Positions 14,192-42,040 are shown, counted from the first letter of the whole stretch. The stretch: DNA of 63,599 nucleotides, filler included, from Folioceros fuciformis (GCA_049999805.1; 15 parts of 15 records of this genome joined end to end with filler, not necessarily neighbours in it); one strand, 5' to 3'. Numbers and translations are program-made. Notes: generated from the sequence alone by a model not told the origin.

Positions 14192-15715
14192 ACAAGGCCT
14201 TAACAGATGCATGCAAAGAAGCTGAGTGGGAGCGCCAATTCCTGGATTCTGTACAACAAACACAAGTTGGATCAACTCAGCTGAAATGTGACAACATGTC
14301 TGCTATTGCCCTTGTGTCCAACCCCCAGTTTCATGCTCGAACAAAGCACATCGAATTATACCATCACTATTTAAGAGATGTGGCTGAGAGAGGACTGGTT
14401 AAAGTTGAATATGTGAACACTGAAGATAACACAGCTGATCTCCTAACAAAAGGACTACCAAAGATCAAACATTATAAACATAGTGTAGCATGTGGGCTGC
14501 GTGCATTTACAGTCACTAGAAAAACTGTCTAAGACTTGTGCTGTAAGCTCAGCAGTGAGATCACACAAAAAAAGAGGAAGAGAACTAGGAGCCTACAAGT
14601 GCTAAGCCAGACTTTCTACTCAGTTAAAGCCTGATTAGTGTTGTTGGCCAAAAAAAAGAAACAAAAAAAAAAAACAATGAACTTGGAAAGGAAAAACGTA
14701 GAGGACAGTAGGTGTTGGTGGTTTTTTTTTGAACTCACAGTTTCATGCTGGAGTTGCACATCCAGTTGCTCCAAGACACGCAGCCTGGCTGATTTGAGGA
14801 GGTTCTCAATTTCCTCACACTTCTGCGAGGTTTGGAGCAAGTGAACAATCTGGTTTCGGTCCGCCTGCGTCGGCCACCACTTCTCACTCGATGCTTCAGT
14901 GCTGATGGTCTCCTAACACTCTTCCTCCACAGCGGGCTGGCCTTGGCGCCTCTTTTTCTGCTTAGTCCGCACCATGGAAGCCCTGCAGGTGCTGAGCCTG
15001 AACATGATGAGATGGTGAGCGTGAACCAACAGCACTCCGCGAGACCTGCCAAGACCGAAAGCAAAGGTGATCAGATTGAGAGCAGAGCAAGAACGAGGAC
15101 GGGGTCAGCCTGCGTCGTTCCTCAATCTCTGGATGGCTGGGTTGTGAGCCTTCTGGCATTTCATCAGCCCGCGCTGAACCAGCAACGGGATCGCCCCGCG
15201 CTTGCGAGGCAGCAGGACAAGTCCCACGCCGGATTGCTGGACGGGCGCCTCGCGGCGGCATCGCGATGTCCTGTAGAGGACTCGCGGATCACAAGCTGGC
15301 TTCATGCTCTGTGTGTTATGTGCCGCGGGTGTGTTCTCGTCGTGGGCCGTTCTCGTGTAGTGGCCGCACGTGTGCGAATCGCCGTGGGGATTTCGTGAGT
15401 TGGTTTTCGCATGTGCAAGTTTATGCGGCTTTAATTTCCCGTTGCACGTTCTCTGGGGTTTTTCTGTTCCGTTCCGTTGCGTGACACTGTTCTGTTATGA
15501 AGTTTTCCTAGTGGTTAAGTTTTTTTTTACTTTTAACATGAGAGGGATTCTACCTTTAACCTAAGAGTAGGTTAAGTGGGAGTGTTAATAATAAGGGGTT
15601 ATTTTAGTATAACCTACCTCAGGGTTAATTAACCATAGTTATGAAAAGACACTTTGTATATAATACCTTTTTTTTGGTTGAGTTTAATTAATTGTCATTT
15701 TATGCAACTTGTGCA
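14192..15715 (+). mobile_element. Ty1/copia RNase H end, ~1.04-kb 3' insert, PPT and short LTR
   Basis: CDNMSAIALVSNPQFHARTKHIE..ADLLTK, stop at 14532. PPT AAGTGGGAG 15574-15582. LTR starts TGTTAATAA at 15583; its right end is uncertain. Confidence 0.85.
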
Positions 15716-16346
15716 CTAGCATCTTTTCTTCTAGCATTCAAGACCTGTATGCAGGCAACAATCAGTCAAGTCAGTTGATAGCCTTGCGAAATCTGCAACT
15801 TTGCAAGATGAGAGATGGTGAATCAATAGAAAAACACCTTGGACATTTCAGAGCACTTGTTTCAAAACTGGAAAGTGCTTCAAATGAGACTATCAAGGAT
15901 TATATGCTTGCCCTTCACTTCCTCTCGTCACTCCCGGAGGCCTGGTCACATTTTGTGACCTCCTTCAATGCTTCTAGACTCCAAACTGAAAAACTGGCAA
16001 AGGCTTCAAGTGTAACCCTGCCAGAGACAACGTTTTCAGAGTTAGTGGGAGGATTATTATAGGAAGAAGAAGCAAGACAGTCTCACGGACGTACAGGCAA
16101 GTAGCAAGCACTCTACACATCTAACAGAGGACGTGGTGGAGGAAGACCCTACAACAGAGGTGGGGGCAGCTTCTCAAGGGGTGGTGGCTCACAAGGACAT
16201 GGATCTGGAGCCAGCCAAAGAAAACCAAAGAGGACAGGCAACTGCAACTGGTGCAAGTTGCCTGGTCACTGGGAGCGTGAGTGCCGGAAAAAGCAAGCTG
16301 GTGTTCCTTGCAAGGAGGGTTCAACCAATGCTGAGACTCACGTGGT
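15716..16346 (+). mobile_element. Ty1/copia gag fragment
   Basis: KMRDGESIEKHL..FLSSLPEAWSHFV and zinc knuckle CNWCKLPGHWEREC. Interrupted by an LTR at 16347. Confidence 0.8.
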
Positions 16347-17752
16347 TGTAAAGAAACAACTGTCAGAGATGGAGACTAGGAGTAGCGTGCAAAGTAGTTG
16401 CTTTATTGCATGCAGAAAAAATGTCTTACAAATTAATTAATTACAATATACCAACCACCGCCCTTACTAAATAACTGCCTATGGGTGTCACGTGCAACGT
16501 TCCACCATCCATGCCGTTCCACCAGCCATACCGTTTTGGGTGGTTTAATTAGTATAATGTATTTATGCCTAAACGGGATTATATTTTAACACCCCCTCTT
16601 AAACCAGATGCGAAACGAGAAGAGGATAGGGCACGCGCCGCCACACGCTGCAGATCAGGGACTGAGGAACGCGCGACAACGGGTGGTGGAGCATGGATGC
16701 TATCTCGAGAGGGCCGCCGCGCATGTCGCTGAAAACGAGTGGAGCTGGGGGCATAGGAACGGGCGTGCGATGCTCACCTGAAGGACTGCAGTGTGTTGTG
16801 GGGATCGGTTGGCCAAGGATCGACGCAACGCTGGGAAGACGTCCACGCTGCAGGGCTGCAGGTTTCTCATCCCGCGCGCTTGCCCCAAAGACTACGTTTT
16901 TCATACTGGCTGGCGAGGAATCGGGTCTGTGGCTGGTTTCCTGATGTTGGGCTGTGTCTCTGCAGGCTGCGCGCACTGGAGAGACATTCGAGCTGTAAAG
17001 GCTGCAGGTATCCCCTTGCGCGCTTGCTCCAGAGACTGCAGCTCTTTTTCTCTCGTTTGTGCAAGGTGGTGAAAAGATCGGATCTGCGTCTTGGCTCTTG
17101 ATCTGTATGTTGGCAAGCCGCAGGCGCCATGGTATGCTGTTGGATCCTAGCGGTACTGAGGCCAGATGCTTATATCAACGCTGAAGCTTCATCCATCTGG
17201 TAAGTCAGTTTTGGTTGCGGGCGGGCATCGTGGCTTGACCACTGATAACCAGCGATGCCTAGTTGTATCTCGTTGGTGAGGTTTAGCTGATCGGCATAGC
17301 CGTGCACCCTCGTGTGATAGGTGAATGTGGAAGCTGGGCTGTAGGGGCTGCAGGGGGAATATGCGGCATCACCTCGGTCACCCGTCCGCAGGTAGCTTGC
17401 TGGTTTCCCCCTCTCATTCACGCAGCCCTTTCATGTGTCAATGTGGGCAGAATAGTCACTGAGGCCAAGCCCCCGCATATGTAGATAGTGGGGGAGCTTG
17501 GGCAAACCCTTTGTAAAAATGTCTGCCGTGTTTGAGTCTGTACTTACGTGACTAACCTTGATGATGCCCCTGGATACCAGATCTCGAATATAGTGATGGT
17601 GCACTTCGATGTGCTTCGTTCGTGCGTGGAAGGTTGGCTTGGATACAAGCTCCAGGGCTGAAGTATTGTCACATAAGATAATTGTGGGATCTGGTTGCGG
17701 GTGGCCAAGACCTGTAAGGAAACTTCTTTCCCACTCTGCTTCTTTGGCTGCT
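16347..17752 (-). mobile_element. Ty1/copia RNase H end, ~0.9-kb 3' insert, PPT and 3' LTR (16347-16591)
   Basis: Minus frame KEAEWERSFL..CDNTSALELVSKPTFHARTKHIEVHHHYIRD..ADIFT. PPT AAGAGGGGG 16600-16592. LTR TGTTAAAA...CTTTACA. Confidence 0.85.
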
Positions 17753-17817
17753 TGTGAACCTCCAAAGTTTGGGGTAGTAGTTTGTTTTGGTTGAAAAAGG
17801 GTTAATAGTGGTATGGT
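17753..17817 (+). mobile_element. 5' end of TGTGAACC-family long LTR
   Basis: Matches 23582 onward and the reverse complement of 48540-48604. Confidence 0.85.
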
Positions 17818-17917
17818 NNNNNNNNNNNNNNNNNNNNNNNNNNNNNNNNNNNNNNNNNNNNTTAATTAATTAANNNNNNNNNNNNNNNNNNNNNNNNNNN
17901 NNNNNNNNNNNNNNNNN

Positions 17918-18670
17918 TTGGCCTTCGGCCCAGGAGCAACAATCCTAGCCTTAATTTGTCCTTGGCCTATGGCCAAGAGCAAGGCTACAAAAAGAGACTA
18001 GGTTTGCCTAAGAGAGGCAGACCCGGGACCCGTCAACAGGTGAAATCAAGCTGGAAAATTCTCCCAACCTGGCAATGCAACGAACCACAAGAACCTCTAG
18101 GAGACAAAGACACAGCAGGGACGAAGTATGGCTGTCTATTGGAACAAGACAAACATCAACAATCCGAGAATCCATGGCTGGGTGCCTACATATATAGGCA
18201 AAAACCCCCAGGAGTTCTCGATGAAGTGTCCACCCGTATCGATGGTGGGCACTTTATAATCCTACTTTCCTTGATTTATGATTTTTATGTATTTTCTAAT
18301 ATCTTCTAATATAAATCTGCTATCTATATATGCGGCATAGCACCGCGCCTTTCATGCACAACCATGCATATAGGTTGCATGCGCCATGACACATCACCTG
18401 CCACATGTCCACATACATCACATGTCATCCTTCATCTCCATATGCATGCATACATGGCACACATGCATATATGGCATACATGTCATGTGCAGGCCATCCA
18501 TGGGCCATGTACATGACATCATCAAGCACTTCAGCATCAGGGCTTATGCCCGAGATGCTCCAGTCAGTATCTAGTCATTTCAGCATTCAGGGCTTATGCC
18601 CAGGATGCTCTAGTCAGTATCCAGTCATAGAGTCTTAGGTGCTCTGTTTCCCATACAGCAACAGCATGAC
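17918..18670 (-). mobile_element. Two pieces of the LTR family seen at 290-830
   Basis: 17918-18038 matches 713-830 (LTR start TGTTGACGG). 18430-18670 matches the CATG-rich block at 430-610. Confidence 0.7.
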
Positions 18671-18894
18671 ACGCCTCTTCAGCTACCGGGGTTGGGGTCT
18701 CGGCTACCGGTGTTGCCGCTCCACGACCAGTAGCTTCTTCAGCTACTGGCGTTGCAACTCGGCTACTCCGCCGAGTCCGGGCCTTCCCCTTCACTTTGTC
18801 TCGGGCCTCGTCCCGCTCTCGCTTGTATCTCTCCACCAGCTTCTGCATTCGCTCCACCGCAGATGCTTCCTACTCATGGGCCCTTAATACCTCC
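18668..18894 (-). pseudogene. Fragment of coiled-coil accessory ORF homologous to 43049-43465
   Basis: MQKLVERYKRERDEARDKVKGK aligns with VQKLADRYKREGDEARSRVKGK. Confidence 0.65.
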
Positions 18895-21428: not shown

Positions 21429-21556
21429 TGTAGAGGGAAAAACTATTCGCCCTTTTNNNNNNNNNNNNNNNNNNNNNNNNNNNNNNNNNNNNNNNNNNNN
21501 TTAATTAATTAANNNNNNNNNNNNNNNNNNNNNNNNNNNNNNNNNNNNNNNNNNNN

Positions 21557-22543
21557 AGACATCCTCCGAAGTCTCAGGATAGTCTAAGAGGTGGTAGATC
21601 CTTGTGTTGGTAGGGCCAGCTCATTGGTGGCAGGATGTGCTAGAAGTCTAAGTAAGTGGCTGGTGACAGCCGGCTAGGCTAGTGGTCCTATTAAAATAAT
21701 ATTTGTCAAGTTAGAGAGAGAGAGGCTCCTATAAGGTCAGGTGAGCCTGTAGGAGGAAGTAGTCATTCACTTTGGGAGTCAGTCTATCACTTCGTGAGCT
21801 CTTGGAGGTTCTCTCTTCATGAGGTCTTATGGTCTGTCCCTGCTTGGTTTAGGACCTGCAGTGTGTTGCCGGCTGTGCAACGTCTGGTAGGATCGCAAGC
21901 CGCGTGTTGCCGGTTGTACAGTGTCTGGTAGGATCACAAGGTGTAATGACTAGGGTGAAGGGGCTTGCCCCTAGCTCTTGATTGTAAAGGATGTGTCTTT
22001 CTCTCAACCTGTCCACTCTTGTTCCCTATTTGGACAAGTGCTGTAGGCCTGCCATGTTTCATGGCGTCTGGTAAGGTTGTGGGGAGGAGATATCCGAGAG
22101 GGGAGTGTGTTCCCTTCTTTCTTTTCTTTGGGGTTAGTCTAGTGACTCTTGACGGGTAGGAGGAGTTAGTAGGGAAGTGTAGAAGGTAGTGGTGTCATTG
22201 TTAGTTGCTGGTGTTGGTGCTGGAGTGAGAGAGTGAAGTGAGTGAGGGAAGTCGCAGATCTGAGAGGTTAGGGTTGTTGTAGTGACTAGAGTGAGTTTGT
22301 GGGCACCGAGAGAGGTGCAGCTGACCGCTGGACAGTGAGGCTTGTCCTACGCCCGACCGGAGCTGGAGGGGAGCCCTCGAATCCATCATCGAGTCGATTG
22401 AGTCCGACCCTCCATCCACAGCAGCAAAGAACCCCATCGCTCCTTCGTGGGAAAGGAACCCAATGTCTCAACGACAGTGGGATAAGTGTGGCCACTAAAG
22501 GTGGAACCCGTCGGCAATCAGTGCCCGGGGTTTTGCCTCCACA
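21557..22543 (+). mobile_element. 3' part of TGTGAACC-family long LTR, non-chimeric promoter version
   Basis: 21930-22543 matches the reverse complement of 44311-44938. The upstream part is different and has its own CCTATAAGG at ~21728. Confidence 0.8.
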
Positions 22544-22707
22544 CCTTGACCTACGGTTGAAGGTAGGGGCAATGGAGGATGAACAGGATATCTACAACAG
22601 TAGATGCGAGGGTGGGCATTAAGTTGTTGACATGGATACCATGGATTTGGCTCAACAAACTCGCAAACCTCCACCTACACCAACGTCTTCTCCCTCATCA
22701 CAAGGAA

Positions 22708-22860
22708 CTATTAATGGGGTTAACAAAACATGGGTTATTTAACCAGAGATGGGTTAACTAACAAGGGATTGTCTTAGACATTTAAAAACCAATTTTGTAA
22801 TACTTTGATTATTATCTATTTAGATTTCATGCTTCTGCAACTTTGACATGGTATCAAAGC
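22708..22860 (+). mobile_element. Short LTR followed by tRNA-iMet PBS
   Basis: Ends TTGACA then TGGTATCAAAGC (22849-22860). Resembles the LTR at 15583. Confidence 0.6.
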
Positions 22861-23581
22861 CATGGTCTTTAGCTTTAAACAAAATTCCTTGGAAGTTGAA
22901 ATGCTATTGAGTTATGGTGATGGTTTTTCTAGTCCTTGGTTGTTGATATTCATGCATTTATAAACTTTGTCTATATATGCTTAGGCATATACATCTTATT
23001 TAGATGTATTGCTTGTATTCTATTGTTAGAATTAGAAATTCAATGAAGAACCCATTTTTGTGATAGATGGTTTTGAATTGTTGGTTAAATGGCGCGAGGT
23101 GGTAAGCGGCCTTATGAGGATTTGCTGCATTAGCTTTTGTGGAGGCAACGTTGTGATCCTAGTAGGCCAGATCGAGTCAGTAGGTAGGGTGGCTATCCTG
23201 TGTGACAGGATTTTTTTGGTGACTCAGAGAGGTGGCATAATATTGGATTTCATTCAAGCAAAGCTATTCACAAAAATTTCAGACATAAGACATCTGACGC
23301 CATGCTATCGATACTGATGGCTTGCCTAGAATCCATTGAATTCTTCCTCAGGCATGTGCTAAACAGCCAGACCAAACAAGAGTCACGGGTAAACTATTTT
23401 GCGGTCAGAATTGCTGGATTGATTGAAGATCTTGGTGAAGCTAGTACCAAGCTTGGGTCAATCCTCATTAGCAATTCAAGATTGCTCCTGCCCGTCATGT
23501 GGATCTGGTGAGATGCATCCTGCATCACATGTGCTTGTGCCCAGGCATCATCGCGACGAGCCTCCGCTATGAAATTCATGG

Positions 23582-24021: not shown

Positions 24022-24289
24022 NNNNNNNNNNNNNNNNNNNNNNNNNNNNNNNNNNNNNNNNNNNNTTAATTAATTAANNNNNNNNNNNNNNNNNNNNNNN
24101 NNNNNNNNNNNNNNNNNNNNNTTCACATGTCATCATACTTACCAAAATTTGGACGTGACATGTCTATTCATTGGACACAAACAAACTCTAGATATCCATG
24201 TTTAAATGTCACTTTTTAGTATGTGGAGCAACACTTGTCATTATGGTGCTTAGAAAGTGCAATGGATTTTTTCTTATACACCTCTTAAG

Positions 24290-26119
24290 GTACTTGTGTA
24301 TTATACACTATGATGTTTAATGTTTAATAAAAATCAATGGCGGAAACATTGCTTGAATAATAAAACATAAACTCGAACATACAAAATTGTTAATGTGTCG
24401 TTTAACCTAAAACTACTTTATAATTGAAATACGAAACGTTGTGTCTCTAGGTATCTAACCTATATTAAGTTACCAGCTTATCTAATTAGAGTACCATCAA
24501 TTCTGAGCTCGCGCGTGCCTGTTTTACATGCTGGTGCCGAGAATTGGCCAAGATTGCTACTCCCATTGAATCTCTGCAGGCTTCTGAGGATATTGCTGCA
24601 AAATCCAGTAGATTGTTGATCCTTCTTGCCCTGTGATGACAACGCTGTTGTAGTGCGGCTTGTTCCTCAACCAGCTATTGTAATCAAGCGGATTCATCCG
24701 CTGTAGGATGGAGGAAGGACATGATCTTGTCTCTATTGTCACCTGCTGCCCAAGGGATCTATCTTTGTTCAAGGGCTGCTCACTAGGGGAAACATGTATG
24801 ATCTAGGCAATCCAAGAGCGTAGTACTGCCAAGAGATGAGTTCTAGCATATAGTCTGCACACTTTTGTTGTGTTTTGCTATGAACTGAGTTGGAAATTTA
24901 CCGAGTGCTGACTTGTGTGTGTGCCTTATTTTACAGGAGCTATGAAGTGATACAATCGCCATCATATCTGGATTACGATGTAGAAGCTTGAGATAGACCT
25001 CAATGAAGATGAGTTGTACCAAGTTGAGTTAGAAAGTGACGACGAAGAAGACACTGTCTACTTATCCACTAACACATGTGACTTTGAATATGTTGAAGCT
25101 AATTGACTTAGCTTTACCTCCACTACCGGGATAGCTGGTGAAATTGCTCATCATTTAGTCACTTGATTTGCTGAATAGTCCACCACGCTGAGATTTTCCT
25201 TATGAGTGTGGTGTTTCTCCTTTGAGAGTGGTTTAGTCAGCAAGTCAGCTGAGTTCTCGTCTGTCTTACAGTATTCTAGCTTGATCTCCTTGTTACTAAC
25301 TTTGTCCCTTATAAAATGGTGGTGCACTTCCACATGTTTGGTCCGTGTATGATATATAGGGTTTCTAGCAAAAGCCAACGCTGATTGGTTATTACATAAA
25401 AGGAGAGAAGGTTCAGACTGAGGCTGCTGAAGATCCTTAAGTAATCTTCTTAACCAGATAGCTTCTTTAGTTGCTTGTGTCAATGCTTAGTATTCAGCCT
25501 CCGTTGATGATAGTGAGACTGAGGTTTGCTTTTTACTCAACCAGGTGACCATTCCTCTAGCCAACTTGAAACAATATGCGGAAATTGATTTTCTTGTATC
25601 AGGGTTAGCAGCTCAATCCACATCGCAGTAACCAAGTAGGCTGAGCTTTTCTCCTTCCTTCCTTCTGTAGTAGATTATGCCAGGGCTAGCAGTTGCTTTT
25701 AGGTACCTTAATATTCTTTTAACAACTGACCAATGTATTGGTCTAGGATTGCTAAGAAACTATGCCACTGCACTCACTAGCTGCGAAATATCACATCTAC
25801 AATTATTTGAGAAGTAATTTAAAGAGCCTACCACTTGGCTATAAGGTACGCTAAGCATTAGTTTGATTTCTTCTTCAGTCCAAGGGGACTATTCTTTGCT
25901 GAGTTTAATTCGAGTGGCCATAGGTGTACTAGCAGGCTTAGCATCAGCCATATTGTATCTTGTTAGCATTGTTTTTATCTAAGTTTCTTGATGTATAGTT
26001 ACAATGCCTGCATTTCTATCATGCTGAAAGTGTGTGCCTAAACACCAATGTAACTCACCTAGGTCATACATTTTGAACTCTTGTGAAAGCATGTGATTAA
26101 CTCTCATCAATAGAGGCAT
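24290..26119 (-). mobile_element. Ty1/copia RT end and RNase H, with ~0.85-kb 3' insert
   Basis: FKMYDLGELHWCLG; KEAIWLRRLL..CNNQSALAFARNPIYHTRTKHVE..ADLLTK, stop at 25151. PPT position (~24280-24290) is tentative. Confidence 0.8.
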
Positions 26120-28314
26120 TGTTAAGAAATTACATGTAGATGTAGATTTATTATAAAAATAACATTGTATATATTCAAGAAAAGAGAGTAAGTAAAACAT
26201 TGAAATTTAAACTTAACTATTCATGAATGGGTGTGACTATTCATAACAGTGGTAACCCTAGCAAAGAGGTAAGCCATTTTAAACTATACACACAATATGA
26301 AACTAGATATAATATAACCCTAATCTCATTATGCCAACATCAATACTCCTTCACTCCCACTTGTTGGATTATGACGATTCAGACGTCTCCTCTTCGCCTT
26401 CTCTAACTTGGGTCGAATGTGAGATTGTGAGTTGAGCTGAGTTGAAAGCTTTGCTGTGTGTATGTATTGGGTTGAGCCGACACCTTTGCCTTTAAAGAAA
26501 CGTGATGGAGCATATATGTACAAACTTGGGCAGCAGGTGCGTTGCGACCCTTACAGCATCCCTCTTCACTTCAAGTCCTTTATTTGTGAGCTGTTGGGGC
26601 GTAGGATCTCTAAGCTCAAGATGTCGTCCTCAGCTACTGATTCCCCTCTTGCAAAGCAACGCGTCTGCCATCGTGACAATCTAGGGCGGTTTGTGAGCAA
26701 ACCGACTAGAACAGCCGTCTCCTCTCAATAGCAAGGACCAGCAAAGATGCCTGCTCCTCGTACTCAAGGTGGCAGCAGCGGAAGGCGTTCACGAGGAAGG
26801 CCACATGGCACCACCAAAGCTTTTCTTGATCAGCGGCGCTCATCAGAGGCTACAGCCTGTAAGACAAAGGTTGGCGCTGCGTGTAAGGCAGCTCCCTGCA
26901 AGATGGCTACCCCTAAAGAGAAGTCTCTTTCAAGGGATCATTGTGACAAGCTCCGCTTCAAAGCTGGTGAGTTTGCGTATGCTGATTCTGACTATAAGCC
27001 TGCTGTGCCAATAAGATTTCCAGTTCCAACACACTCTGATGAGGAAACCAAGATTGTGAGCCTTGGTTCTTTTGCTATTCCTTGTACCCCTCTGTGATAT
27101 AAGTGCCCTTACACCCACCTGAAGATGGTGCGAGTGAGGATAGAACACTGCCGCGAGTTTGAGTGCCATGTGGTTAGCTTTTATAGTAAGTGTGCCTTGT
27201 CTACTGTTTATGCCAGCATCCCCGTTGCTTTCTTCTCATAGTTCCCTAATAAGCTCCCACTTGCCCTGCAAGATTTAAATTAAGGTTGGAGGAAGAGCAC
27301 AACCTTGAGACTGAGGAGAGGATCTCTTACATGGAGCGTAGGAAGAGAAACTCTCCAAGATCGGATGAGAGCTTCACCACTCCTTCTGAACATGTCCTTG
27401 ATTCCTCTGAGCTTGATTCCTTTGGCAGTCGTGCAAGTGTGGCTGTAAATAGTGTGGAAGAAAACAGCGTAGACTAGGGATATGACTAGTAGTTTGGGTC
27501 ACTAAACTGCAAGACTGAGGAAGTCACTTGGCTTCCCCATTCTAAGACATTTCAAGTGCCTCTCGTGCAGCTCCCTACCTAGGGCTTTTGTCATAATGTC
27601 TGCTGGATTTTCTATTGTTGGCACATACTCGAGTATAACCTGTCCACTCTTGATCAAATCTCTGATGAAATGATACTCCACCTCAATGTGTTTTGTCCGT
27701 GAGTGATGCACAGGGTTTTGCGCAAGGTTTATAGAACCCTGACTGTCTGTTTTGATCACTGTGCAGGTGGGGAGAGGTAGTCCGAGTTCACTGAAGAGCA
27801 GCTTGCACCAAGCAATTTCTTCAAAAGCGGTTGTGAGGACACGGTACTCTGCTTCTATGCTTGAAAGAGCAACCGTTGGTTGCTTCTTGCTGGACCAACA
27901 GATTGGTCCCCCAGCAAACATGACGATATATCCAGAGACAAATCTTCTACTATCTATGTCACCAGCGTAGTTTGAATCAGTATATACATCTAGTTCAAGG
28001 GTGGCATCAGGTTTGTGTTTGTAAACGATTCCATAATGTGCTGTACCCTTTAAGTATTGAAATACCCTTTTAACACAAGTCTAGTGCTCCTGTGCAAGGT
28101 TTTCTAAGTATTGTGAAACCACACTTGTGGAATATGCCACTTCAGGACGAGCAGTGTTTGCTGCATATATGAGCTTTCCTATTGCCTTGCGGTAAGGGAT
28201 AGGAAGCATTTTGTCCTTTTCAGCTTGCGTTTGTGGACTCATGGATTTGCTGAGCTTAAGTCCACTTGGTAATGGTGTGACTGCAGGCTTCGCATCCTTG
28301 AGTCCAAGCTGGTC
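26120..28314 (-). mobile_element. Ty1/copia RT end and RNase H, ~1.14-kb 3' insert, PPT (26345-26362) and AT-rich LTR sequence
   Basis: WSSKKQPTVALSSIEAEY..DSQGSINLAQNPVHHSRTKHIE..ADIMTK, stop at 27502. PPT AAGTGGGAGTGAAGGAG. Confidence 0.85.
26621..27477 (+). pseudogene. Putative spliced antisense accessory gene inside the copia 3' insert (exons 26621-27185 and 27242-27477; 266 codons, 4 premature stops)
   Basis: GTAAGT...TTCTTCTCATAG intron joins two ORF-track frames in phase. All four stops (TAG, TGA, TAA, TAA) are one C>T change from sense codons. Confidence 0.55.
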
Positions 28315-29624
28315 TGTGCTATCAAGCAGGTAAAGCGGAGCAAGATGCTAGATTGAGCTATGATAATTGAATTGCTTAATTGAGAACGTTGTACATATAG
28401 TATCTGGGATGCGGTTGTAACCGCGGTACTGTCGAGTGCTAGCATAACTGGCAGAACTGCTCTTCAGCAACTAAAACATTTATCTACCTATGCACGAAAC
28501 CTGCCCTAATAACTCTTGGGTACTAAAGCCCAATCCGTGGCGCCAGAGTTTCTACTCCAACACTCCCCCTCACTGCGGATTCCAGCTTGCTGTGATGGCG
28601 TCGATCTCCCACACGTGTCTCAACCTCGTCCTCGATCTTCCAGGTGCAGAGGTGGAAGGTCGAAGTAGCAGAAGCAGGTTGCTGGCAGTGGTGGAGCAGA
28701 GTCGTGTTGTCGGAACTATGGACCTCCCCCTTTCTGTGCACTGGCAGCTGCGAAGGGAATGCTCAGATAAAATTCTCTGCTCACTAGTCCGATGCCTGAA
28801 GTTCAATATGCTTGTCGTGAAGTGGCTAGGGTAGGCCCTTCGTCAACAGATCGATGGTGTTGTCCTTCGTGTTGATGTAACTTAAGGCGACTTGCTTGTT
28901 GGCCACCACGTGGCGAATGAAGTGGTGCTGGATCTCCATGTGCTTGGTCCTTGTGTGCAGCACAGGGTTGAGCGTCATAGCTATGGCTGATAAATTGTCG
29001 CAAAATAGCTATGTGGGCTGATCCTGGTCCTTGCCTATATCATGCAGGAATTGCCTCACCCATAGAATCTCTTTGGTGCCAACGTTGTTGCCGCGTACTC
29101 CGCTTCCATTGATGAGGTACAGATCGTTTGCATCTTCTTACACGCCCATGACACTGTACAGCCATTGATGGCTGTGGAGTAGTTTGTTGTAGATCTTCTC
29201 ATTTCTGGATCTCCAGCCCAATCTGCGTCTGAGAACGAGATTAGAGTGAGCTTGGTAGAGCGGTCACCTCTGTAGGTGAGTCCAAAGGACTTGGTCTTCT
29301 TTAGGTAGTGAAGGATGCGCTTAACGCAGGTCCGGTGAGCCTTCCCGGGGTTCGACAGATATCTGGATACCACGTTCACAGCTTGTGCAACGTCGGGTCT
29401 TGTCCATATTGAGAGGTAAAGTAGGCTACCTACTGCCTCATTGTATGGGATGGCAGACATCTCCATTGATTCTTCAGGTGTATTAGGGCAATCTGCTGCA
29501 GATACCTTCTCTCCTGATGCCACTGGAGTTGATACCGGCTTCGCGTCCTTCATGTTGAATCTCTCCAGCAATTGATCTACATAATGTTCTTGATGGATGA
29601 AGAAAGAGTGGTCCTCCTTGTTGT
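28315..29624 (-). mobile_element. Ty1/copia RT-RNase H end with PPT and 3' LTR (28315-28562), nested in another copia
   Basis: IPYNEAVGSLLYLSIWTRPDVAQAV..FSDADWAGD. Minus-strand GTGAGGGGGAG PPT, then TGTTGGAG...GCACA. Confidence 0.85.
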
Positions 29625-32888: not shown

Positions 32889-33752
32889 TATAAAAAGTAT
32901 GCAGGGTCATGAGAATCATCAGAACGGGTAATTACACTCCGTAGTGTTTTCGCTTAAAAGAATGTCTCAGCCCGTAGGCTGTTGGTGTGCAAGCTTGTGC
33001 CTGTTCGAGTTCAAGAGACACGACTCTTCAGCCAGGTCTAACGGAATGCCTAACTTGTTATTGCATTGCTTGACCATAGCCATGAAGGCTACGGGTATAA
33101 GGCCATTCACTTTCGTGATCAATCTGACGTATGCATCCACCGGGTCACACGAGACTGCATGCCTAAGCCATGTAGGCAACATGTTCATGGTAGAGCAGTG
33201 GATGACGTGAGGTTCAGATGAAGGCAACTTCTCTTCCGGGTGGCCTGAAGTGCTCAAGGACGTCCGGCGTCTTTCTCTCACGGCTAAACTTTAATCGTTT
33301 GCTATAGGCATAGAGAATGGAAGACAAATGGCTCAGAAAGGGGCAATATTGCCCAGCCTTCGAAGGGGCAATGTTCGAGCAGTACAGATATGTCCAGGCC
33401 GAAACATGCGTGATACCCCAGGCTTTTTGCAATAAAAAAAGTGATCACACTTCACCACCAAGGCACTTCACTACCACTTTGTTGGGAGAAGGGGATGGAC
33501 TTCGCACTCACGGCAAAGTGAAAAAGCTGTCTTTTGTCAGAAAGAACAAGGTGATCCCAAACCCGGCCACTGCGGTCCAAACCATCATGATGGCAAATAC
33601 AGTATGCCGCGTTGGCTAGAGGCCTCGAGAAGAGGATAGTGGGAACGAAGAGACTGGATAGCAGGAACACCAGGCCCTGAGGAGGGGATTAAGTGACAGA
33701 GAGAAGCATCCCTTAGTCACTATGTCCACATGTTGAAGAGAAGTGTTACTCA

Positions 33753-35781
33753 CTAATAGAGATGGAGTGGCAAGCGAGGGGTTGGAACTACTCTAAGGTG
33801 ACGCTTCATTGGCACAGCCAGTCCAAATTGGTCAGACATGTCTACGTCTTCTGGTTTTTGGCCTTGAGGGAGACTCCAGTCGAAGCTGTGGAGCAGCTTA
33901 GCAAGGAAGAAGCTGGATACAGTCATGCCCATAGCAGCGGCAGGGCAGCTCCTCCTGCCGCTTCCAAAAGGGAGCATGTCGAAGTTTTGTCCTCTGATAT
34001 CAATGTCTCTGTACAGGACGGCAGCAAGCCGATGAACGCAGATGCGATACAGAACATCAGACTAGTAAGCAGACTGTGAGCCTTCATGATCTAAGCAAGG
34101 GGAACCATTTGATGTAGATTAGTTAGACCTACGTACCTTTCAATGAATCTCTCCGGCCGGAATTCTAGAGGATTATCCCAGGCGTCTGGGCTTCTGTGAA
34201 TGCTCCATGAGCTGACGAAGACAGTGGTGTTGGCAGGAATGTCGTAGTCCCCAAGCTTGCAGTCCTCTGTGGCGTAATGTGGGATAAGGAAGGGAGCAGG
34301 GGGATGCAGCCGCACAGCCTCCTTCCAAACAGCTTGGAGGTAGGTAAGACGGACTACATCCGATTCCTGCAATTGCCGGTCCCGCCCGACAACCGAGTCC
34401 ATTTCTTGCATTGCCTTCCTCATCATCTGCGGGTTACGGAGCAGGTAGGCAAAAGCCCATTCTGCTACCACGACAGAGGGTTCAACTCCAGCGAGCAGAA
34501 TGTCCTGAGCCATGACAACGAGCATGTGAACTTGGTGTGGTGCGACGAGTCCAGGGAGAGACATTCACAGGTCCGTCAGGATGTAACTCAAGCATAAATG
34601 TAGATTCCAATACCGTGAGCATTCCTTTCATGGCCTGATCTTTGTCGACGCCTTCTTCCCCCGGGAGCGTCAGCAGCACATCAACGAAACTCTGTGGTAT
34701 CCAATTCTCGGTTTGTATCATTCGCTGCCTATGTGTGTCAATGATGTTGGACAGGAAGGAGCTCAGCCTACTTCGGAGCTTGCGCATGGCCCTTACGCGG
34801 AATGTATCCAGAAATCCCAGGAAAGGGATGTGGTCCCCTACCATTGGCATTCCCAGCAGCCTGTTGATGTCAGAGATCACCGACATGTACTCAGCTACCT
34901 CCTGCGGATCTACCTGCGCGCCGCCGCCGTTGACAAACACCACAAGAAAAAAACAATAGACGGATCAAATTTAAGGTGGCAAATTTTGCGCACAATTCAG
35001 TTTTCAATTGGAGCAAAGATCGAAGAGAAGCTGTGGAGCTAACCAGATCGGATTTCTGTCCAATTGGCTCTCCATGCTCGAACGCACAGAAGCGCGTGCT
35101 CATCAGCATCCGGGACAAGTTGTTAATGGCTATAGATGTTCCTAAGTCGAAGACGTTCACCTCTCCCGGACTCTTCTGCAACACAAATCTCATTGCAGCC
35201 GCCAGTTCCTCTTCTCTAAACTGCTGGAACCGTTCAAGTCTCTTGGGTGTAAACAGCTCCGTCACCATGATCTTCCTGACAATCCAACGATATATAGGAC
35301 TGGCATAATCCGGCTCCGTTCTGTTCAACTCAATGTCGCTCGGGTTTGCAAACGTAAGTGATCAGGTGGCCTACCTCACATACTGGTGCCTGGATCCGTA
35401 GGCTTGGAATCCGCATGTTCCTTCTTGGAAAGCCAGGTGTCGGTAGGCTTGAAGAGGAGCCCGAGATGCGAAACTACGGTCTTGCACTTTCAGCACCTCT
35501 CTGGCCATGTCCGCAGATGAAATGACGACAGCCAGGTTGGAACCCAGGCGGAGGGACATGACAGGACCGTGCTCCTTGGCCAACTCCCCAAGGCGAGCAT
35601 GTGGCCTTTCAGTTGCGAAAATGGAAAGGTTTCCTATCACTGGCCATGCTGATGGGCCTGGAGGAAGGCGCCGCTTCCTTTTGCCGCAGCTGCTGGACTG
35701 TTTGCCAGGAAAGCCGGCTAAGAGCACGATAGTCAGGAATCCCACGACGATAGTCAGGCCTACTACAACCATCAAGTCCAT
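33753..35781 (-). CDS. Cytochrome P450, A-type/CYP71-clan-like, 5 exons (35781-35375, 35275-35044, 34913-34614, 34504-34137, 34008-33753), 520 aa
   Basis: N-terminal transmembrane anchor plus LPPGPSAWPVIGNL, KEAVRLHPP (ExxR), FRPERF and heme motif PFGSGRRSCPA. Four GT-AG introns (99, 130, 109, 128 nt) give an uninterrupted 1563-nt frame. Intron 3 lies just before the I-helix, the conserved A-type position. Confidence 0.93.
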
Positions 35782-36849
35782 GACGTAACTGCGTCTTGCT
35801 TCCCAATCCTTTCAACCTTACAGCAAAGCAGGGCTCTTTCCGAACCAGGTAAATCAAAACTTTAGCTGGAGAGCTGCATGGGATGATGCCCTTCGTAGCT
35901 CGGAGTCGGGAACCAGCTCTGCTACATCTTCGGGTGAATGGAGCGGGTTGAACAATATGTGGCATAAGGCCCGAACTTCGTACAACCACGAAGGCCTCGG
36001 GGCTTGTTAGCTGATTCTCATTCACATGGGCGGCAATTACTGAAGTGACACAGTCCTAAATGCATTTGGTTTGCCGAGTTCGGCCACACTGTTCCTTAGA
36101 CGCGGAAAAACACAGAGAAAGTGTTGCGGCATGCTTTCTGCAGCATATACCTTACCGACTGTTAAAGTTGTCCATGCTCTTCCTATCACAGGATTGTGTT
36201 TCGAACCACTCCCATGTGCGAGCCTTGAGAACGTGGTCAGCCAGAGATTCTGTAGGCGCTCCCCCATCGAGATTGCTCGAGCTCAAACGAGGAAGATTAG
36301 AATTCCAGTCCCCGACATTGGCAAGTTGTAAGATGCCTCCTCCGTCGTTAGCTCATGGCCCGTTCACATAGGACCCGGCGCTCGGCCTAGGGACACCGTA
36401 AAGATCGGGCAAATTTCGTCTTTTTCGTTTCTTTAACCAAAAGATAAGATGCGCCCTGCGCAGTATGACCTTGCTGTGGCCGCGCCTTGGTCCCATGACC
36501 CGTGATGTTATGATATTAATATTATATTACTAAAATAATATTAGGAGTATACATGAGACTCGTCTCCTCGTTTTCTCCTTCATTTTCCTTTATATGGCTT
36601 CTGCATATTCAAGTCCGTTTTTTTGTTTTATGATGAGTCCTAGATTTGTTCTACGTCTTGTCCTAGACTTGTGTATGTCTTGGCTTGGTTTGCTTGGGGC
36701 CATGGATCTCATGATATTTAATATTTTATTTGATTAGTTTATAAAATATTATATAGAATACATGGACCTATCTAACTAACTTATGTTTTTGTTATTCCTT
36801 GAGTACTTTCATTGGTTAGAGCTTACTTCTTTTATTTAGATATTGAGCA

Positions 36850-37850
36850 GCATTCTTCAATAAGATTTTGTTGGAAGCTTCTGCTCCAACATACAACTTG
36901 GAGTTTCTGTCATATCCATGCTTGGCACCCTATGGCACAAGAATAGTTGGATGTTTAATGGAGAAAGAAGTACATGATGACTAACACAAATTTCAAGCTT
37001 GTGGTGGAGGAATTGCATCCTTACATTCAAAAGAAGTCTAACAAGCCACGTCAACAACTTGAGGTTGGAGTAGTCATGCTCTTGCACATATTAGTGTATG
37101 GAACATCTCCTAAAGTTGTCACTAACACATATGAATGATCCATTGTGACAAAGTATACCAAGTTGATTACTAGCATCTTTAGTAATCCAAGAAAGTTGGC
37201 TTCAAAGTTCATCAACTAGCAACACCTAGCATGTGTAGATAAGTTTTTTTTTGAAAGTTACTAGAATTCCAAATATAGTTGGTACAATCGATGGTTCGCA
37301 CATCAAATTGGCCACTACGCTTGCTAACAAGTCCACTCCAACTACATATTTGGACACGTCATGATATGCAAAGGGTCATTATTCAAGGAGTTTGCGATTA
37401 TAATCGATTTTTTTATGTAAATTGTATTGCTCTAGGAGGTGTCCATGACTTTGTTATGTTATGGAAGAGTAGTGTGTGGACAAGATTATGGAAGAGCAGT
37501 GTGGACAAGATTATGGAAGAGTAGTATGTGGACAAGATTATATCGACTTAACATCTAAAGAGAGCCAACAATATTGATTAGCAATACTAATGTTCGGTCT
37601 TTTATTAATGATGATAGTGATTCTCCAATCATGGCTTTTCTTATAAATGCATATGACACACTATGCTTGTTAGACAAATGAAGGTTCAACAAAAGTCTTC
37701 GCAAAAGAAGAGCGAAAATTGAAAATGTGTTTAGAAATTTGAAAAATAGTGGGCATATTTTGAGGGGCATAAATGTAGCTCTCCATTATATGGCGCAGAT
37801 TCTAGTAGTGTACACAATGTTACATAATTTTTGCATCCAAGAAGCCTAAT
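36850..37850 (+). pseudogene. PIF/Harbinger DDE transposase remnant
   Basis: GTIDGSHIK, IIQGVCDYNRFFYV..GGVHD, FNKSLRKRRAKIENVFRNLK and MLHNF follow the DDE_Tnp_4 motif order. Many stops and frameshifts. Internal ~25-bp tandem repeat at ~37458-37545. Confidence 0.8.
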
Positions 37851-39456
37851 ATGGCCAATGTGTGAGAAAATCCACACCCTTATATTATGCAACGTTAGCC
37901 ATTTTATTTGGAGAATGGTGTAAGAAGCAGCTTTAGTGAGTAGGCAACAAACAAAGATAAGTATTGTTGGAGTTTTGGTTTATAACAAATCATTGATATA
38001 TTATTAGAGGTTAGGGTATAGAAATTAATGAGATCAATTGTGATAGTTATTGTATGTTAGCCTATACGTGAGGCCATCCTATCCATTTAGAACTATATAT
38101 GAAAAAAAGATAAAGCCCTACAAACTTAAAAATAAATTCAATAATTATTATGTTCAAATTAGAACATTTCACAAGATAGAAGCTTCAAGTTTGGACTACC
38201 AATCTTTGGATATTGTATCCATGTAGTTGCTTAAGCGACACTAGATACTAACTAAATTCTACGGGACAAAGCATGGGTGGAGGTGGTGCAAAGGGGGTGG
38301 TCGAAGACACGTGACTTTGCGGAGTTGAGTTTACTCCGGCATCTATGAGAAGACAAGGTAGAGTAGTAGAAGAGGGAAGATTGGTTAGAGAGATAGTGTG
38401 AACTGGAGGGAGGAAAAAGATGATCAGTAAGACAAAGCAGAGTAGTGTAGAGCAAGGATGGAAGGCTGGAGGGGGATGCCATGTTCGCCGATAAGAGTCC
38501 AACGAGTTGAGGTATGACTGGGATTGGGGGAGAAGTCCAATGTAAACGGGGTGGCAAAGGGTGTATAGTGCTACGGGTCATTGTGTGTAACAAACCGAGG
38601 TGTGCCCCATGAATGTCGTGGAATCTTAGTTGCTCCTATGTTGGAGTGGATAACTCCCCCTAGAAGAAGGAGAGGACCGATCTAGGACTCCAAAACTCGA
38701 ACGGCCATTGCAGCAAGGCATCATTACAAGCAAGAGGCATGCCCAGAAGGTAGGACTCAGAGTGGGAGGTGCATACAAGAGCACACACGGAAGGGCAACA
38801 AAGTAGAACTTAGAATTGGCGGCCTCTTCCTTAAGGAAATGGTTCGAAATTTATAGCATCCTCCAAACTTAGAGTCCGAACAACTGTCATTAAAGCAAGA
38901 AATATCCTCTCTATCCTAGCATCTCCTAAGCTTCCAGTTGTCCATAGGCTTTAGATCTTGGAAGCTCGGCGAGGCGACGGCCAGCTAGTGAGCTTCAATG
39001 AGGTGCCGAAGCAACGGGGGTGGCAGCAGCTAGTGGGGTCAAGGCCAAGGTGCTCGGCGGAGGCAGCGGTGAAGTGGGCCTAGGAAGAGACTCCTTGGGT
39101 CCAGATCAGGACCCAAATGGATGACTTGCTGTGATGCTATATTTTTATAGGGAAGCATTTTCTATGGCTAGGCACTATGTTTCCTAAACATTCTACGACA
39201 AACAACCTTCTTTTAGCTTAGATTTTCCCTATTCTAAATCGATAGGTCTCGACTAGCATCTACAAGATTCTTCTCGTAGTTCGAATGAAAAAAAAAAAAC
39301 TATCAGGATGTAATGCATGATTTCTTTTGCAGAGCCGAAAAAGCTCATCGAGAAGATCTATCAACAAGCGGGTAAGGTTTCTCAAAACTTTGGATATCGC
39401 TTGCGCAACCTCAACAATATGTTTCTAGCCATGATCAGAAGACCATGTGACCCAAG

Positions 39457-39691
39457 GCTCTGATACCATGATAAAATCCTAACAATAGGATTGTGTAGCA
39501 TGCATCTAACCCATGATGCTACGCAAGATATGTTCTTCGTTCATTAATTAAACAAAAGGTATACAAGGTGTGTTTTAAGGTGGTGCAGGGTGTCCGTTCA
39601 TGAAGAGGCTCACCCTTTCGTAGTGACCTAACCCTATTAACGGTAACTAGATTATAGGCAGGGTTACGAGCAAATTAATCGTTCCGTAACA
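39457..39691 (-). mobile_element. 5' LTR (39469-39691) and tRNA-iMet PBS, related to the LTR at 9503-9755
   Basis: TGTTACGGAA start on the minus strand; GCTCTGATACCA at 39457-39468. Confidence 0.8.
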
Positions 39692-40224
39692 AAGCCAAAC
39701 CTACTATCCTAGATGAGGCATATGCAATAATGAAGCAGGTGCAAGGTCTCCTTATGCAAGTTTCAGCAAGGGTGGACGAAGCGTCAGCCAGTAGACCTGC
39801 CTTGGAAAAGATAGTTTTGAATGAAGAAACGAATAGGCTTATGTGATTTAAAGGTATAGAAGAACGATCACGATCCAAGAAGAAGAAAGTGACATGGAAA
39901 CTATAAGTGTTGTTGCATGTTAGCTTATTTTCGTTTCGTTTTGTTGGCCATGACCATGAAATTTGTGAGTAGTTCACAACATATTCCAAATCGTTGTCAA
40001 AAGATAAACGAGATGCTCCAACTCCTCCTTGCTCACTTTGCCACACGCCTCCCACCTCTGGCTCCTTGCTCCGGCTCCTTGCTCCGGGGTCTCCTTGCCT
40101 TGCTCCTCAAAAGACCGCGCACAGTTTCACGGGTTCAACCCAGTTTCACGGTTGAACATGGTTTCACGGCTTAAACTAGAAGGTGGCAGCACTGGGCGAT
40201 ACGAGTAGAGGCGATCTCGGTATG
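39692..40224 (-). mobile_element. Highly decayed copia gag/protease remnant
   Basis: Gly/Arg-rich stretch then FLDRDRSS..LLADASSTL, resembling protease spacing. Cut by a gypsy LTR at 40225. Confidence 0.35.
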
Positions 40225-40337
40225 TGTAGAGGGAAAANNNNNNNNNNNNNNNNNNNNNNNNNNNNNNNNNNNNNNNNNNNNTTAATTAATTAANNNNNNN
40301 NNNNNNNNNNNNNNNNNNNNNNNNNNNNNNNNNNNNN

Positions 40338-42040
40338 AGATTCCAACGTTTACCGCCTAAGTCGAGGAGCAGATTTTGTCCTTCTGGCCTTGTACGTGGA
40401 TGATGTCATCCTCGCAACAAACAGTCAAGGGTTGTTAGCATAAGTTAAAAATATGCTGAGCACAAAATATGATATGAAAGATATTGGAGAGCTCAGATTC
40501 TGTTTAGGAATCCAAATTCTCAGGGTCAAACAGGAAGGTCTGCTGATTATCCATCAACATAAGTACATAGGAGAAATCATGCGTAAATTTAAGATGGATC
40601 AAGCCAGGCCTGTGTCCACACCTTATGCAACTAGAATGAAACTCACCAGTGAGCAGTGTCCGCAGTCTGAGGAAGAAATTAAGGACATGTCTACAATCCC
40701 CTACATGCACGCTATGGCCAGTCTCTCACAGACGCCTACAAGGAAGCTGAGTGGGAGCGTAGTTTCCTCAAGGACCTTGACCAAGAACAAATGGCACCTA
40801 CAAAGCTGCATTGTGACAATATGTCAGCCCTGGCATTGGTGGCTAATCCTAGATTTCATGCAGGTACTAAGCACATTGAAATTCAGCACCACTATGTTAG
40901 AGATGTAGTCGAGAGAGGTGTGGTCAAAGTAGCAGACATCCTCACAAAGGGCTTGCCAGAACATAAGCACTAAGCACCTTAAGGGACTTGGGTTATCAGA
41001 TTACTATGCCTACTTCAAGGATGGGTCTTAGGACTTATCTGGTAGGAGGGGGCGGGAACCCTGACGTTCCCTGGGTGTGGCATGGTGTGCCAGCAATCCA
41101 ATTACCTGCAAAAATAACTACACGTAGCAGGCTCGTCAGAGGGAGAGTCCACAAAACATGTTAGGTCAGTCACACATTTGACAGCACAATAGCAAGGACA
41201 GACGGGATGGATGAAGCTCACCTTAGGATGAAATCATCCCGTGCTGCCCTGATTCTCACAAGATAGGTTTGACATCCTACGGCTCATCTGAAGGCAGTGG
41301 GACTCCATCAGCAGCTAGTAGCAGTTCCAACTCCGCAATCCTGTTCATGGCCGCCCTGAGCTTGGTCGCAAGGATGGGAGCAGCGTACTCCGAATAGCGA
41401 AAGTCTGGCATTTGCTGTTGGGGCCCCCTCCTCCTGCGGAGCTCTGGCAGTCCCTGGGTATGGTCCTGAGCTCACCAGCATACTGTTCACTCTCGTGACC
41501 AGTTCCTCCAATGAGTTGCAGCTGACCCAAGGTTGCGGGCTTCGCTTCTGCTGTTCTGGGCTCCTACACGGGCGCACGTTCCCTTCTCTTTAGCGCTGCT
41601 TCACACAGGCACAGCTTCGCGTTGCTCGCTTTCCTCTTGCTATGGTTCTTCATGGCTTTGAGGCGGCGGCGGGCGTGGTAGCTAAGTAGCTCAGTTGTGA
41701 CGAGACTAAGGGAGATGGCGCATGCTAGCAGGACTGCAGTATCGAAGGCCGCCATGATAGAGGGTTCAGGGTTTTACGCCTGGAGCCGCCGTGGCACAGG
41801 GCAGCCAACAGGAGCGCTAAGGATGATCCGAGCAATGTGAACCTCCGTTATGTATACGTCACTTACCTAACAGGTGCTTTAGAGGGAGTGTTGGAGATAA
41901 AGCCAACCTCTACTTAAGTAACAGTCGTTAGGGTTAAGTGAAGCGTTATCTAGTCAAGTATAAAAGACAACTCAAACACTTTTTGCATTCGTTTTTATTT
42001 GTTTTGATGAAAGTTTATCTTGTACACTCGTCAGCTTACA
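40338..42040 (+). mobile_element. Ty1/copia RT-RNase H (internal deletion), ~0.9-kb 3' insert, PPT 41881-41888, LTR 41889-42040
   Basis: LALYVDD; MKDIGELRFCLGIQI; CDNMSALALVANPRFHAGTKHIE. AGAGGGAG then TGTTGGAG...CTTACA. Confidence 0.88.

Follow-up and report, generated by a model that had tools for sequence, protein, structure and literature searches.

The question raised by a 63.6-kb stretch of DNA from Folioceros fuciformis (GCA_049999805.1; 63,599 nucleotides with filler, hereafter the window) is whether Ty1/copia retrotransposons carry, between pol and the 3' long terminal repeat (LTR), an intron-containing accessory gene that is read antisense to pol. Such a gene had been proposed for five elements in a preliminary description of this DNA. 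The analysis presented here points, with some reserve, to a less uniform answer as the probable one: the copia post-pol spacers are heterogeneous, with an orphan antisense open reading frame (ORF) in element E, a possible remnant in element D, sense-leaning ORFs in elements A and B, and nothing detectable in element 5. The window consists of 15 separate contigs (1.2-10.5 kb) joined by artificial linkers of the form N44-TTAATTAATTAA-N44 (for example, at 2362-2461 and 13787-13886); the neighbourhood of contigs carries no meaning, and nesting contexts are valid only inside one contig. Two of the five post-pol regions are in contig 5 (13887-17817; elements A and B, spacers I1 and I2), two in contig 8 (24122-29624; elements D and E, spacers I3 and I4) and one in contig 10 (40338-45462; element 5, spacer I5).

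That these spacers are part of the elements was confirmed. The intact copia ORFs of the window itself (gag, the 919-residue protease-integrase-reverse transcriptase of contig 14, and others) were used as tblastn queries; copia gag and pol fragments were found to be spread over most contigs, and a copia reverse transcriptase-ribonuclease H (RT-RNase H) was found to end directly upstream of all five spacers. Each of the five decayed 3' ends has the same order, namely, the RNase H C-terminus, a stop codon, a spacer of 0.84-1.15 kb, and then a short purine tract, TG and an AT-rich, TATA-bearing sequence that resembles a copia U3. RNase H thus occupies the C-terminal end of pol and is followed by a polypurine tract and a TG-starting LTR, which is the arrangement of Ty1/copia elements. 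The spacers measure about 1050 (A), 839 (B), 870 (D), 1145 (E), and 857-915 nt (element 5). The inserts of 0.85-1.15 kb that had been described for these five elements were therefore borne out, as were the LTR starts, with a single correction: the end of the element B insert had been put at ~17480, about 50 nt away from the pol stop at 17433-17431. The spacers were also considered as the 3' LTRs themselves, and this was rejected, since the purine tract, TG and AT-rich TATA-bearing sequence begin beyond them and the LTR of element E was confirmed by depth. In the latter, word depth reaches 629 in 26146-26329 vs 240-420 further inside; because depth roughly doubles there and other copies diverge at 26122/26123, this LTR was placed at 26123-26353. 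In element F, also in contig 8, pol is separated from the TGTTGGAG start of the LTR by just ~220 nt; not every element, then, has a long spacer.

The surroundings of the five ends differ. Both elements of contig 5 end in short LTRs (~160-170 bp) that adjoin the truncated gag of a third element; a copia gag between them was also identified by Pfam, and the LTR of element A adjoins a 5'-truncated gag at 15748-~16410. In element 5, a TAA at 40971-40973 follows a frameshift, and a C-terminus like that of element B continues in another frame to the stop at 41029-41031. The RNase H of element 5 also lacks ~110 internal residues when compared with the element of contig 12. By their RNase H, elements A, B and 5 are related, whereas D and E are distinct from them, and at least three lineages are therefore represented.

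Element E provides the case with coding support. Read-depth and copy-divergence data were derived from Logan contigs of DNA runs on contig 8 and cover I3 and I4. The depth of I4 (240-417) equals that of the pol of element E (266-372), and contigs of high depth cover positions 27512 and 26381, with 175 and 57 letters, respectively, to their ends. Because these contigs extend past both positions, the pol/spacer and spacer/LTR borders are crossed at high depth; together with the equality to pol depth, this shows that I4 is a fixed part of a high-copy family, present in most of its copies, and no private insertion.

Between pol and the 3' LTR, antisense to pol, a frame of I4 extends over 26441-27241. 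Three tests single it out. The best antisense frame contains 9 stops vs 16.7 in 500 dinucleotide shuffles (P=0.002). A codon-usage log-odds model trained on 16.5 kb of gag-pol from the window, which was right about the frame of 12 out of 13 held-out segments, gave a score of 0.121 for 26441-27184; true frames average 0.125 and off-frame windows reach at most 0.063 (250-codon windows), none of 500 shuffles attained the I4 score (P=0.002), and the other two frames of the antisense strand scored -0.012 and 0.018. Finally, 3-base periodicity, measured as a model-free chi-square in 300-nt windows against 200 shuffles, was significant and at the level of pol segments, as no shuffle reached the mean. 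Copy divergence gives no more than a hint in this direction: 6 of the 12 differences of I4 from the majority are synonymous in the antisense frame, as compared to 1 of 6 in the pol of element E, among the 40 of 932 contig-8 differences read. The frame comprises ~206-263 codons only when two in-frame stops of this copy (26729-31 and 27095-97) are read through. The product would be basic, with several Cys/His clusters and an RGRP motif, which we take to be AT-hook-like, inside an Arg/Ser-rich stretch. These statistics, obtained on one decayed copy, are good evidence for a putative coding region. In length, the longest stop-free antisense ORFs (121 codons in I4 and 129 in I1) fall below the values used for extra ORFs, which are at least 250 codons in PMC6317226 and >600 bp in PMC11963269 (here and below, published work is cited from extracts of the articles); the copies present in the window are decayed, and intact copies may reach these lengths. 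According to the reading we favour, the E family would carry in I4 an orphan extra gene of about 200-260 codons, antisense to pol and tail-to-tail with it, that could be transcribed from its own promoter in or beside the 3' LTR and, by analogy with known systems, might encode a nuclear regulator that binds nucleic acids.

The other four spacers behave differently from I4 and from each other. In I1 (GC 0.51), a sense ORF of 201 codons at 14793-15395 exceeds the lengths in 500 dinucleotide shuffles (P=0.008), and in I2 (GC 0.58) the same holds for a sense ORF of 190 codons at 17174-16605 (P=0.038); above-chance ORFs of these two spacers were found on the sense strand only, with P values of 0.28 and 0.30 for their antisense ORFs. 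Antisense ORF lengths are as in shuffles throughout I1, I2, I3 and I5 (P 0.28-0.40). I1 also shows significant 3-base periodicity at the level of pol segments (0 of 200 shuffles reached the mean) and, at 15494-14619, an antisense frame of 290 codons that only 2 stops interrupt. Periodicity is unable to separate the strands in this case, because the 201-codon sense frame and the 15494-14619 frame are complementary in phase. I2 showed neither 3-base periodicity nor a codon-usage signal, I5 (GC 0.55) no coding signal on either strand in ORF length, codon usage or periodicity, and no frame of I1, I2 or I5 stood out in the codon-usage model. In A and B, the candidate ORFs thus lean, if anything, to the sense strand.

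Spacer I3 (GC 0.40) has a depth of about 9-21 vs 60-125 for the pol of element D and showed no 3-base periodicity against 200 shuffles. In a paralogue of I3, ~91% alike, 79 letters are added at 24836/24837 and 14 are missing at 25087. The acidic antisense ORF of I3, 40 codons long, has a codon score of 0.231 (P=0.012 vs shuffles) and resembles the terminal ORF of I4 in position and composition, with no sequence similarity found between the two. It is possible that I3 retains a short remnant of an antisense ORF, of at most 40 codons. A property common to all spacers is their CpG content: the observed/expected (o/e) ratio is higher than in the adjacent pol in all five (spacer/pol, 0.82/0.27, 0.83/0.44, 0.58/0.27, 0.51/0.36, and 0.60/0.35 for I1-I5), and I1 and I2 are near CpG-island values.

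Comparison of the five spacers by tblastx and blastn revealed no similarity beyond one 27-residue match between sense frames of I1 and I2 (E=1.4e-4 in a tiny search space) and one 13-mer, in agreement with the preliminary description, which had seen no clear homology between the inserts. In a MAFFT alignment of the post-pol regions of A, B and element 5, the pol C-terminus aligned and the spacers did not, and no spacer matched the rest of the window. The five spacers, which have no sequence or protein similarity to each other, are not one system, and with coding support in one of five cases the interpretation given in the preliminary description is partly supported. The 13-mer is identical in I2 (about 17197-17185, minus strand) and I5 (about 41206-41218, plus strand) and is located ~235 nt from the nominal pol stops (237 nt in B and 235 nt in element 5, the latter counted from the frameshifted TAA and not from 41029-31). 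We judge it unlikely that chance would place a match at equal offsets; the 13-mer lies on the exon side of the intron-like unit of I2 but inside that of I5.

Searches for homologues and domains were equally negative. Pfam returned no family at E values up to 1 for the 15 antisense frames of the five spacers, read with X at stops, and none for the 9 sense frames of I1, I2 and I5; the TRP28 domain Transposase_28 (PF04195) was absent from the 15 antisense frames. Word-indexed protein searches, which compare proteins of near length only, gave 0 matches for the I4 antisense, I1 antisense and I2 sense products. An ankyrin-repeat protein, the sole HMMER match of the I4 antisense product among 1.84 billion representatives, was judged spurious by BLASTP. 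The ESM Atlas contained no usable match for the 121-residue I4 ORF and three matches at 0.76-0.77 for the 201-residue I1 sense ORF, which is below the 0.9 lead level. AlphaFold, proposed earlier as a check on the peptides, was run on the 121-residue ORF of the single I4 copy and yielded a mean predicted local distance difference test (pLDDT) score of 43. Among 80 metagenome copia loci fetched with the RNase H of element E, the best was 50% identical and none resembled any spacer.

The intron-like units of the preliminary description are real sequence features. All five were found again with their motifs, including the mutated ATGAGT donor at 24836 of I3, which is exactly the site of the 79 extra letters in the paralogue; all are antisense to pol and lie no farther than about 100-330 nt from its stop. 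The argument that an antisense intron survives retrotransposition is also sound. Their sizes had been likened to those of host P450 introns, and one such intron was confirmed: the P450 gene at 33300-35500 (minus strand) of contig 9 (PF00067, with E=5e-44 for one of its exons) contains, between the exon ending near 34137 and the haem-binding exon, an intron of ~127 nt, GTACGT...TGTACAG.

Statistical support for splicing is mild. A plain rule was applied first, with GTRAG as donor, YAG as acceptor, a pyrimidine content of 60% or more over the 20 nt preceding the acceptor, and a length of 50-150 nt. By this rule, which the units described for I1 and I2 fail, the spacers contain 10 antisense and 7 sense units, against an expectation of 4.8 on either strand derived from the remainder of the window. 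An ad hoc graded score, combining donor and acceptor, was then computed for the first 350 nt downstream of every pol stop. For the top antisense unit in each stretch, this gave empirical P values of 0.171, 0.036, 0.545, 0.115, and 0.007 for I1-I5 against 668 background windows, and of 0.159, 0.027, 0.442, 0.223, and 0.017 against 300 dinucleotide shuffles each. As for the shuffled and sense-strand controls that had been called for, Fisher's combination of the shuffle-based values gave, for this single score, P=0.008 on the antisense strand and 0.49 on the sense strand. This is a mild aggregate excess carried by I2 and I5; individual values range up to 0.442, and once five tests are corrected for, no unit is significant on its own. 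The pyrimidine tract that looks like part of an acceptor is, in four of the five spacers, complementary to a purine run on the sense strand, which offers a possible origin unrelated to splicing; in I1, the tract is the complement of the sense A-run, with the A-rich tract at 14649-14677.

In none of the five spacers does an open frame depend on the unit. The I1 unit is in frame and free of stops, and its splicing would alter just 36 residues before an unchanged stop. In I5, the unit at 41221-41106 lies 60 nt past the stop of the nearest ORF, and a second unit at 41105-41039, which begins at the acceptor of the former, scores higher. In I4, joining to the acceptor at 27241 would bring in a stop two codons downstream of the junction; the sole high-ranking stop-free in-frame join connects the GTAAGT donor at 27186 to a weak AAG acceptor ending at 27253 (68 nt), and this join scores 8.5, below the average of 9.0 that the best units of 350-nt segments reach across the window. 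One nucleotide at 27206, within the I4 unit, is missing from most copies, and tolerance of this length change fits an intron and equally fits non-coding sequence. The motifs are probably for the most part chance occurrences or by-products of sense-strand purine runs, and antisense splicing in the spacers is a hypothesis suggested by motif statistics. The coordinates of all features are compiled in Table 1.

Table 1. Coordinates of the copia 3' ends, spacers, candidate ORFs and intron-like units in the window
Feature	Position	Strand	Details
Element A, RNase H C-terminus and pol stop	14194..14532	+	stop 14530-14532; cut off upstream at 14191/14194 by another repeat
Spacer I1 (element A)	14533..15582	+	
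Element A, 3' LTR	15583..15745	+	~160 bp, AT-rich; TGTTAAT start after purine tract 15563-15582
Element B, 3' LTR	16420..16591	-	~170 bp; TGTTAAAA start after AAGAGGGGG; TG at 16591
Spacer I2 (element B)	16592..17430	-	
Element B, RNase H C-terminus and pol stop	17431..17817	-	stop 17433-17431
Spacer I3 (element D)	24281..25150	-	LTR TG at 24280
Element D, RT-RNase H and pol stop	25151..26110	-	stop 25153-25151
Element E, 3' LTR	26123..26353	-	231 bp; TG at 26353
Spacer I4 (element E)	26354..27498	-	
Element E, RT-RNase H	27499..28332	-	one internal stop; double pol stop 27504-27499
Element 5, RT and RNase H	40338..41031	+	internal deletion at 40725/40728
Spacer I5 (element 5)	41032..41888	+	
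Element 5, 3' LTR start	41889..42040	+	TGTTGGAG after TTTAGAGGGAG, with TATAAAAG box; only LTR start delimited
Candidate antisense ORF, E family (I4)	26621..27241	+	frame open from 26441; ATG 26621; end TAG 27239-41
Second antisense ORF, I4	27253..27477	+	74 codons, acidic, other frame; ends 24 nt before E pol stop
Antisense acidic ORF, I3	24984..25103	+	40 codons; ends 48 nt before D pol stop
Intron-like unit, I1	14631..14738	-	GTGAGT...CAG, 108 nt, in frame, without internal stop
Intron-like unit, I2	17200..17320	+	GTAAGT...TAG, 121 nt, antisense to pol; score P about 0.03
Intron-like unit, I3	24836..24936	+	ATGAGT mutated donor, then ...TTTTACAG / ...TTATTTTACAG
Intron-like unit, I4	27186..27241	+	GTAAGT...CATAG, 56 nt; region to 27253 with alternative acceptor
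Intron-like unit, I5	41106..41221	-	AAG/GTGAGC...TTTTTGCAG, 116 nt

Several observations weigh against an antisense gene in the E family amid otherwise heterogeneous spacers. The copy of element E has two in-frame stops, leaving 121 codons as the longest stop-free antisense ORF in I4, and the majority variant at 26531 makes a further stop in the frame, upstream of the ATG. Just 12 of the 932 contig-8 differences were placed in I4 and readable, which is no demonstration of purifying selection. The protein-library and ESM Atlas searches found no homologue of the I4 product, and its AlphaFold model has the low pLDDT given above. The second antisense ORF of I4 is marginal, with a codon score of 0.127 but P=0.084 vs shuffles. 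Transposon genes with a GC of ~0.45 served as training set for the codon model, which could overlook a GC-rich gene in I1, I2 or I5; the depth and bridging data come from contig 8 alone, for I3 and I4. Furthermore, this reading does not account for the antisense excess of splice-like pairs.

In the original proposal, all five lineages would possess a spliced antisense accessory gene, read from the 3' LTR and encoding a regulator or anti-silencing factor. The presence of a splice-like antisense unit in 5/5 spacers at about 100-330 nt from the pol stop, the contrast between the two combined P values, the periodicity of I1 and its antisense frame with few stops, the raised CpG ratio in 5/5, which would suit a promoter-like 5' region near the LTR, and the 13-mer common to I2 and I5 all speak for it. 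Nevertheless, we consider this distinctly improbable, given that periodicity is absent from I2, I3 and I5 and a codon signal from I2 and I5, that antisense ORF lengths in all spacers but I4 are shuffle-like, that A, B and element 5, although related, have no antisense protein similarity to one another, that no unit is required for an open frame (individual P 0.017-0.44), and that two units violate the plain pyrimidine-tract rule. What stands of the original proposal is the E family, on account of its stops, codon usage, periodicity and depth; I2 and I5 gave no signal, the ORFs of I1 and I2 are sense, and I3 has its 40-codon remnant. A bolder form, in which several unrelated copia lineages would hold a ~1-kb post-pol slot with fast-evolving, intron-bearing antisense genes read from the 3' LTR, the E product would be a nuclear AT-hook-like DNA-binding regulator of the element or of host silencing, and the introns would mark genuine RNA polymerase II genes that persist only because they face backward, is to be regarded with just as much doubt.

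The opposite possibility is that all five spacers are non-coding, serving as an untranslated tail, cis-acting RNA, or regulatory or antisense-promoter DNA, and that the I4 signal is a relic or an accident. It would account for the lack of a homologue or Pfam family for the frames searched, for the lack of a long intact ORF in I3, I4 and I5, for spacers that change too fast to align between related elements, and for their CpG-rich composition. It is unlikely, however, in view of the three independent frame- and strand-specific coding tests that I4 passes and of the periodicity of I1; in addition, RNA folding of I1 and I2 is no better than that of shuffles (z of -0.54 and +0.19), and the five spacers contain no Retand-type tandem-repeat arrays, the A-run in I1 being their only tandem repeat. 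The spacers might also be host gene fragments captured by transduction, some of them in antisense and hence with their host introns kept. In I1, I2 and I5, GC (0.51-0.58) and the CpG o/e ratio (0.60-0.83) are nearer to those of the host P450 exon (0.53 and 0.62, respectively) than to pol (CpG o/e 0.27-0.44), the units are similar in length to the host intron, and capture has been discussed as an origin of extra ORFs (PMC7264820). We nonetheless regard capture as very unlikely, because the scanned spacer frames are without a Pfam or protein match, I4 is found at full family depth and not as a single copy, its codon usage is gag-pol-like, and the rest of the window contains no match. An E-family antisense ORF among spacers of different kinds is thus the reading that we retain.

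Some further observations concern the contigs in which these elements reside. Contig 5 begins with a repeat (13887-14191) that belongs to a family of three copies, 91-92% alike, the others being at 22239-22543 and 44311-44615; the match extends up to 629 bp between 21930-22544 and 44310-44938. This repeat is probably the terminus of another inserted element, because one copy stops exactly where the RNase H of element A is cut (14191/14194). In contig 8, the RT of element E is cut mid-domain at 28332/28333 and adjoins the end of the short LTR of element F, and other copies diverge on both sides, which fits an insertion of F into E. In contig 8, DNA contigs also contain two joints, from 26403 to 27514 and from 27193 to 27266, to which no meaning is attached here. 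Of 6 sequencing runs, 2 contain contig 5, neither of them being on record as RNA. A run guessed to be RNA gave a single contig, ~91% alike, on the pol and LTR of element F only (28341-29624, minus strand); it ends 8 nt from the end of the F LTR and extends past the end of contig 8, so that either the F family may be transcribed or this run may contain DNA. One DNA run of the same sample has a large excess of C>T (250) and G>A (223) differences, every other type being at 2-55; its library resembles one prepared by bisulfite or enzymatic conversion, from which methylation states of the elements might be obtained.

Extra genes of LTR retrotransposons are the closest plant counterpart of retroviral accessory genes, and the antisense cases described are gypsy elements (PMC7264820, PMC11963269, PMC4093653). 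If the present reading is true, a high-copy copia family with an antisense ORF widens the range of antisense extra ORFs, and the E family, with its ~1 kb, would be a compact case in which to study the role of these genes. Splicing of even a single unit would mean that a retroelement can pass an intron-containing gene through reverse transcription by means of its backward orientation.

Clear parallels, as well as differences, emerge from the comparison with known systems. HTLV-1 HBZ is a spliced antisense gene driven from the 3' LTR. The layout proposed here would be analogous, with a retroelement whose 3' end contains a gene in antisense that may include an intron; neither the bZIP domain nor any other Pfam domain was present in the 15 antisense frames. 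Among copia elements, those of the SIRE clade have a sense "env-like" ORF downstream of pol (eORF-3'F), and I1 and I2 likewise have above-chance sense ORFs. The latter are shorter, however (190-201 codons, under the 250-codon threshold), the LTRs here are about 160-230 bp, and the best-supported ORF, that of I4, is antisense. The REXdb survey identified extra ORFs of at least 250 codons in 582 copia elements, which formed 45 mutually dissimilar groups and were highly heterogeneous between elements; in the extracts of its text, the SIRE sense ORF is the only one singled out (PMC6317226). In common bean, 63 of the 65 copia families lack an extra ORF and the remaining two have sense env-like ORFs, whereas pvRetro13 and the other 14 ORF2 families are all Ty3/gypsy (PMC4093653). 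Antisense promoters have been described in two copia elements, Mdoryco1-1 and AtRE1, in a review that urges attention to antisense and spliced transcripts (PMC7264820). A full-text search of a limited library turned up no publication on copia elements with an antisense ORF that contains an intron.

The nearest relatives of the E arrangement are the antisense extra ORFs of gypsy elements, namely, gene23 of maize Grande, that of rice RIRE2, TRP28 of Silene Retand, and ORF2 of bean pvRetro13, which occupy the same position between pol and the 3' LTR, opposite to gag-pol (PMC7264820, PMC11963269, PMC4093653). Their proteins are without database similarity, and some are nuclear (PMC7264820). The E family differs from this class in that it is a Ty1/copia element, that its spacer is ~1 kb vs 3-6.5 kb (2.9-6.6 kb in Retand elements, whose spacers carry TRP28; PMC11963269), that its product has no TRP28 (PF04195) or SMC match, and that its ORF is below 250 codons and broken in this copy. 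The two are alike in that the segment is family-wide and the predicted protein is an orphan, basic and possibly nucleic-acid-binding. Most likely, the E ORF belongs to the eORF-3'R (aORF-3R) class already described, in a superfamily, copia, that is an unusual host for it.

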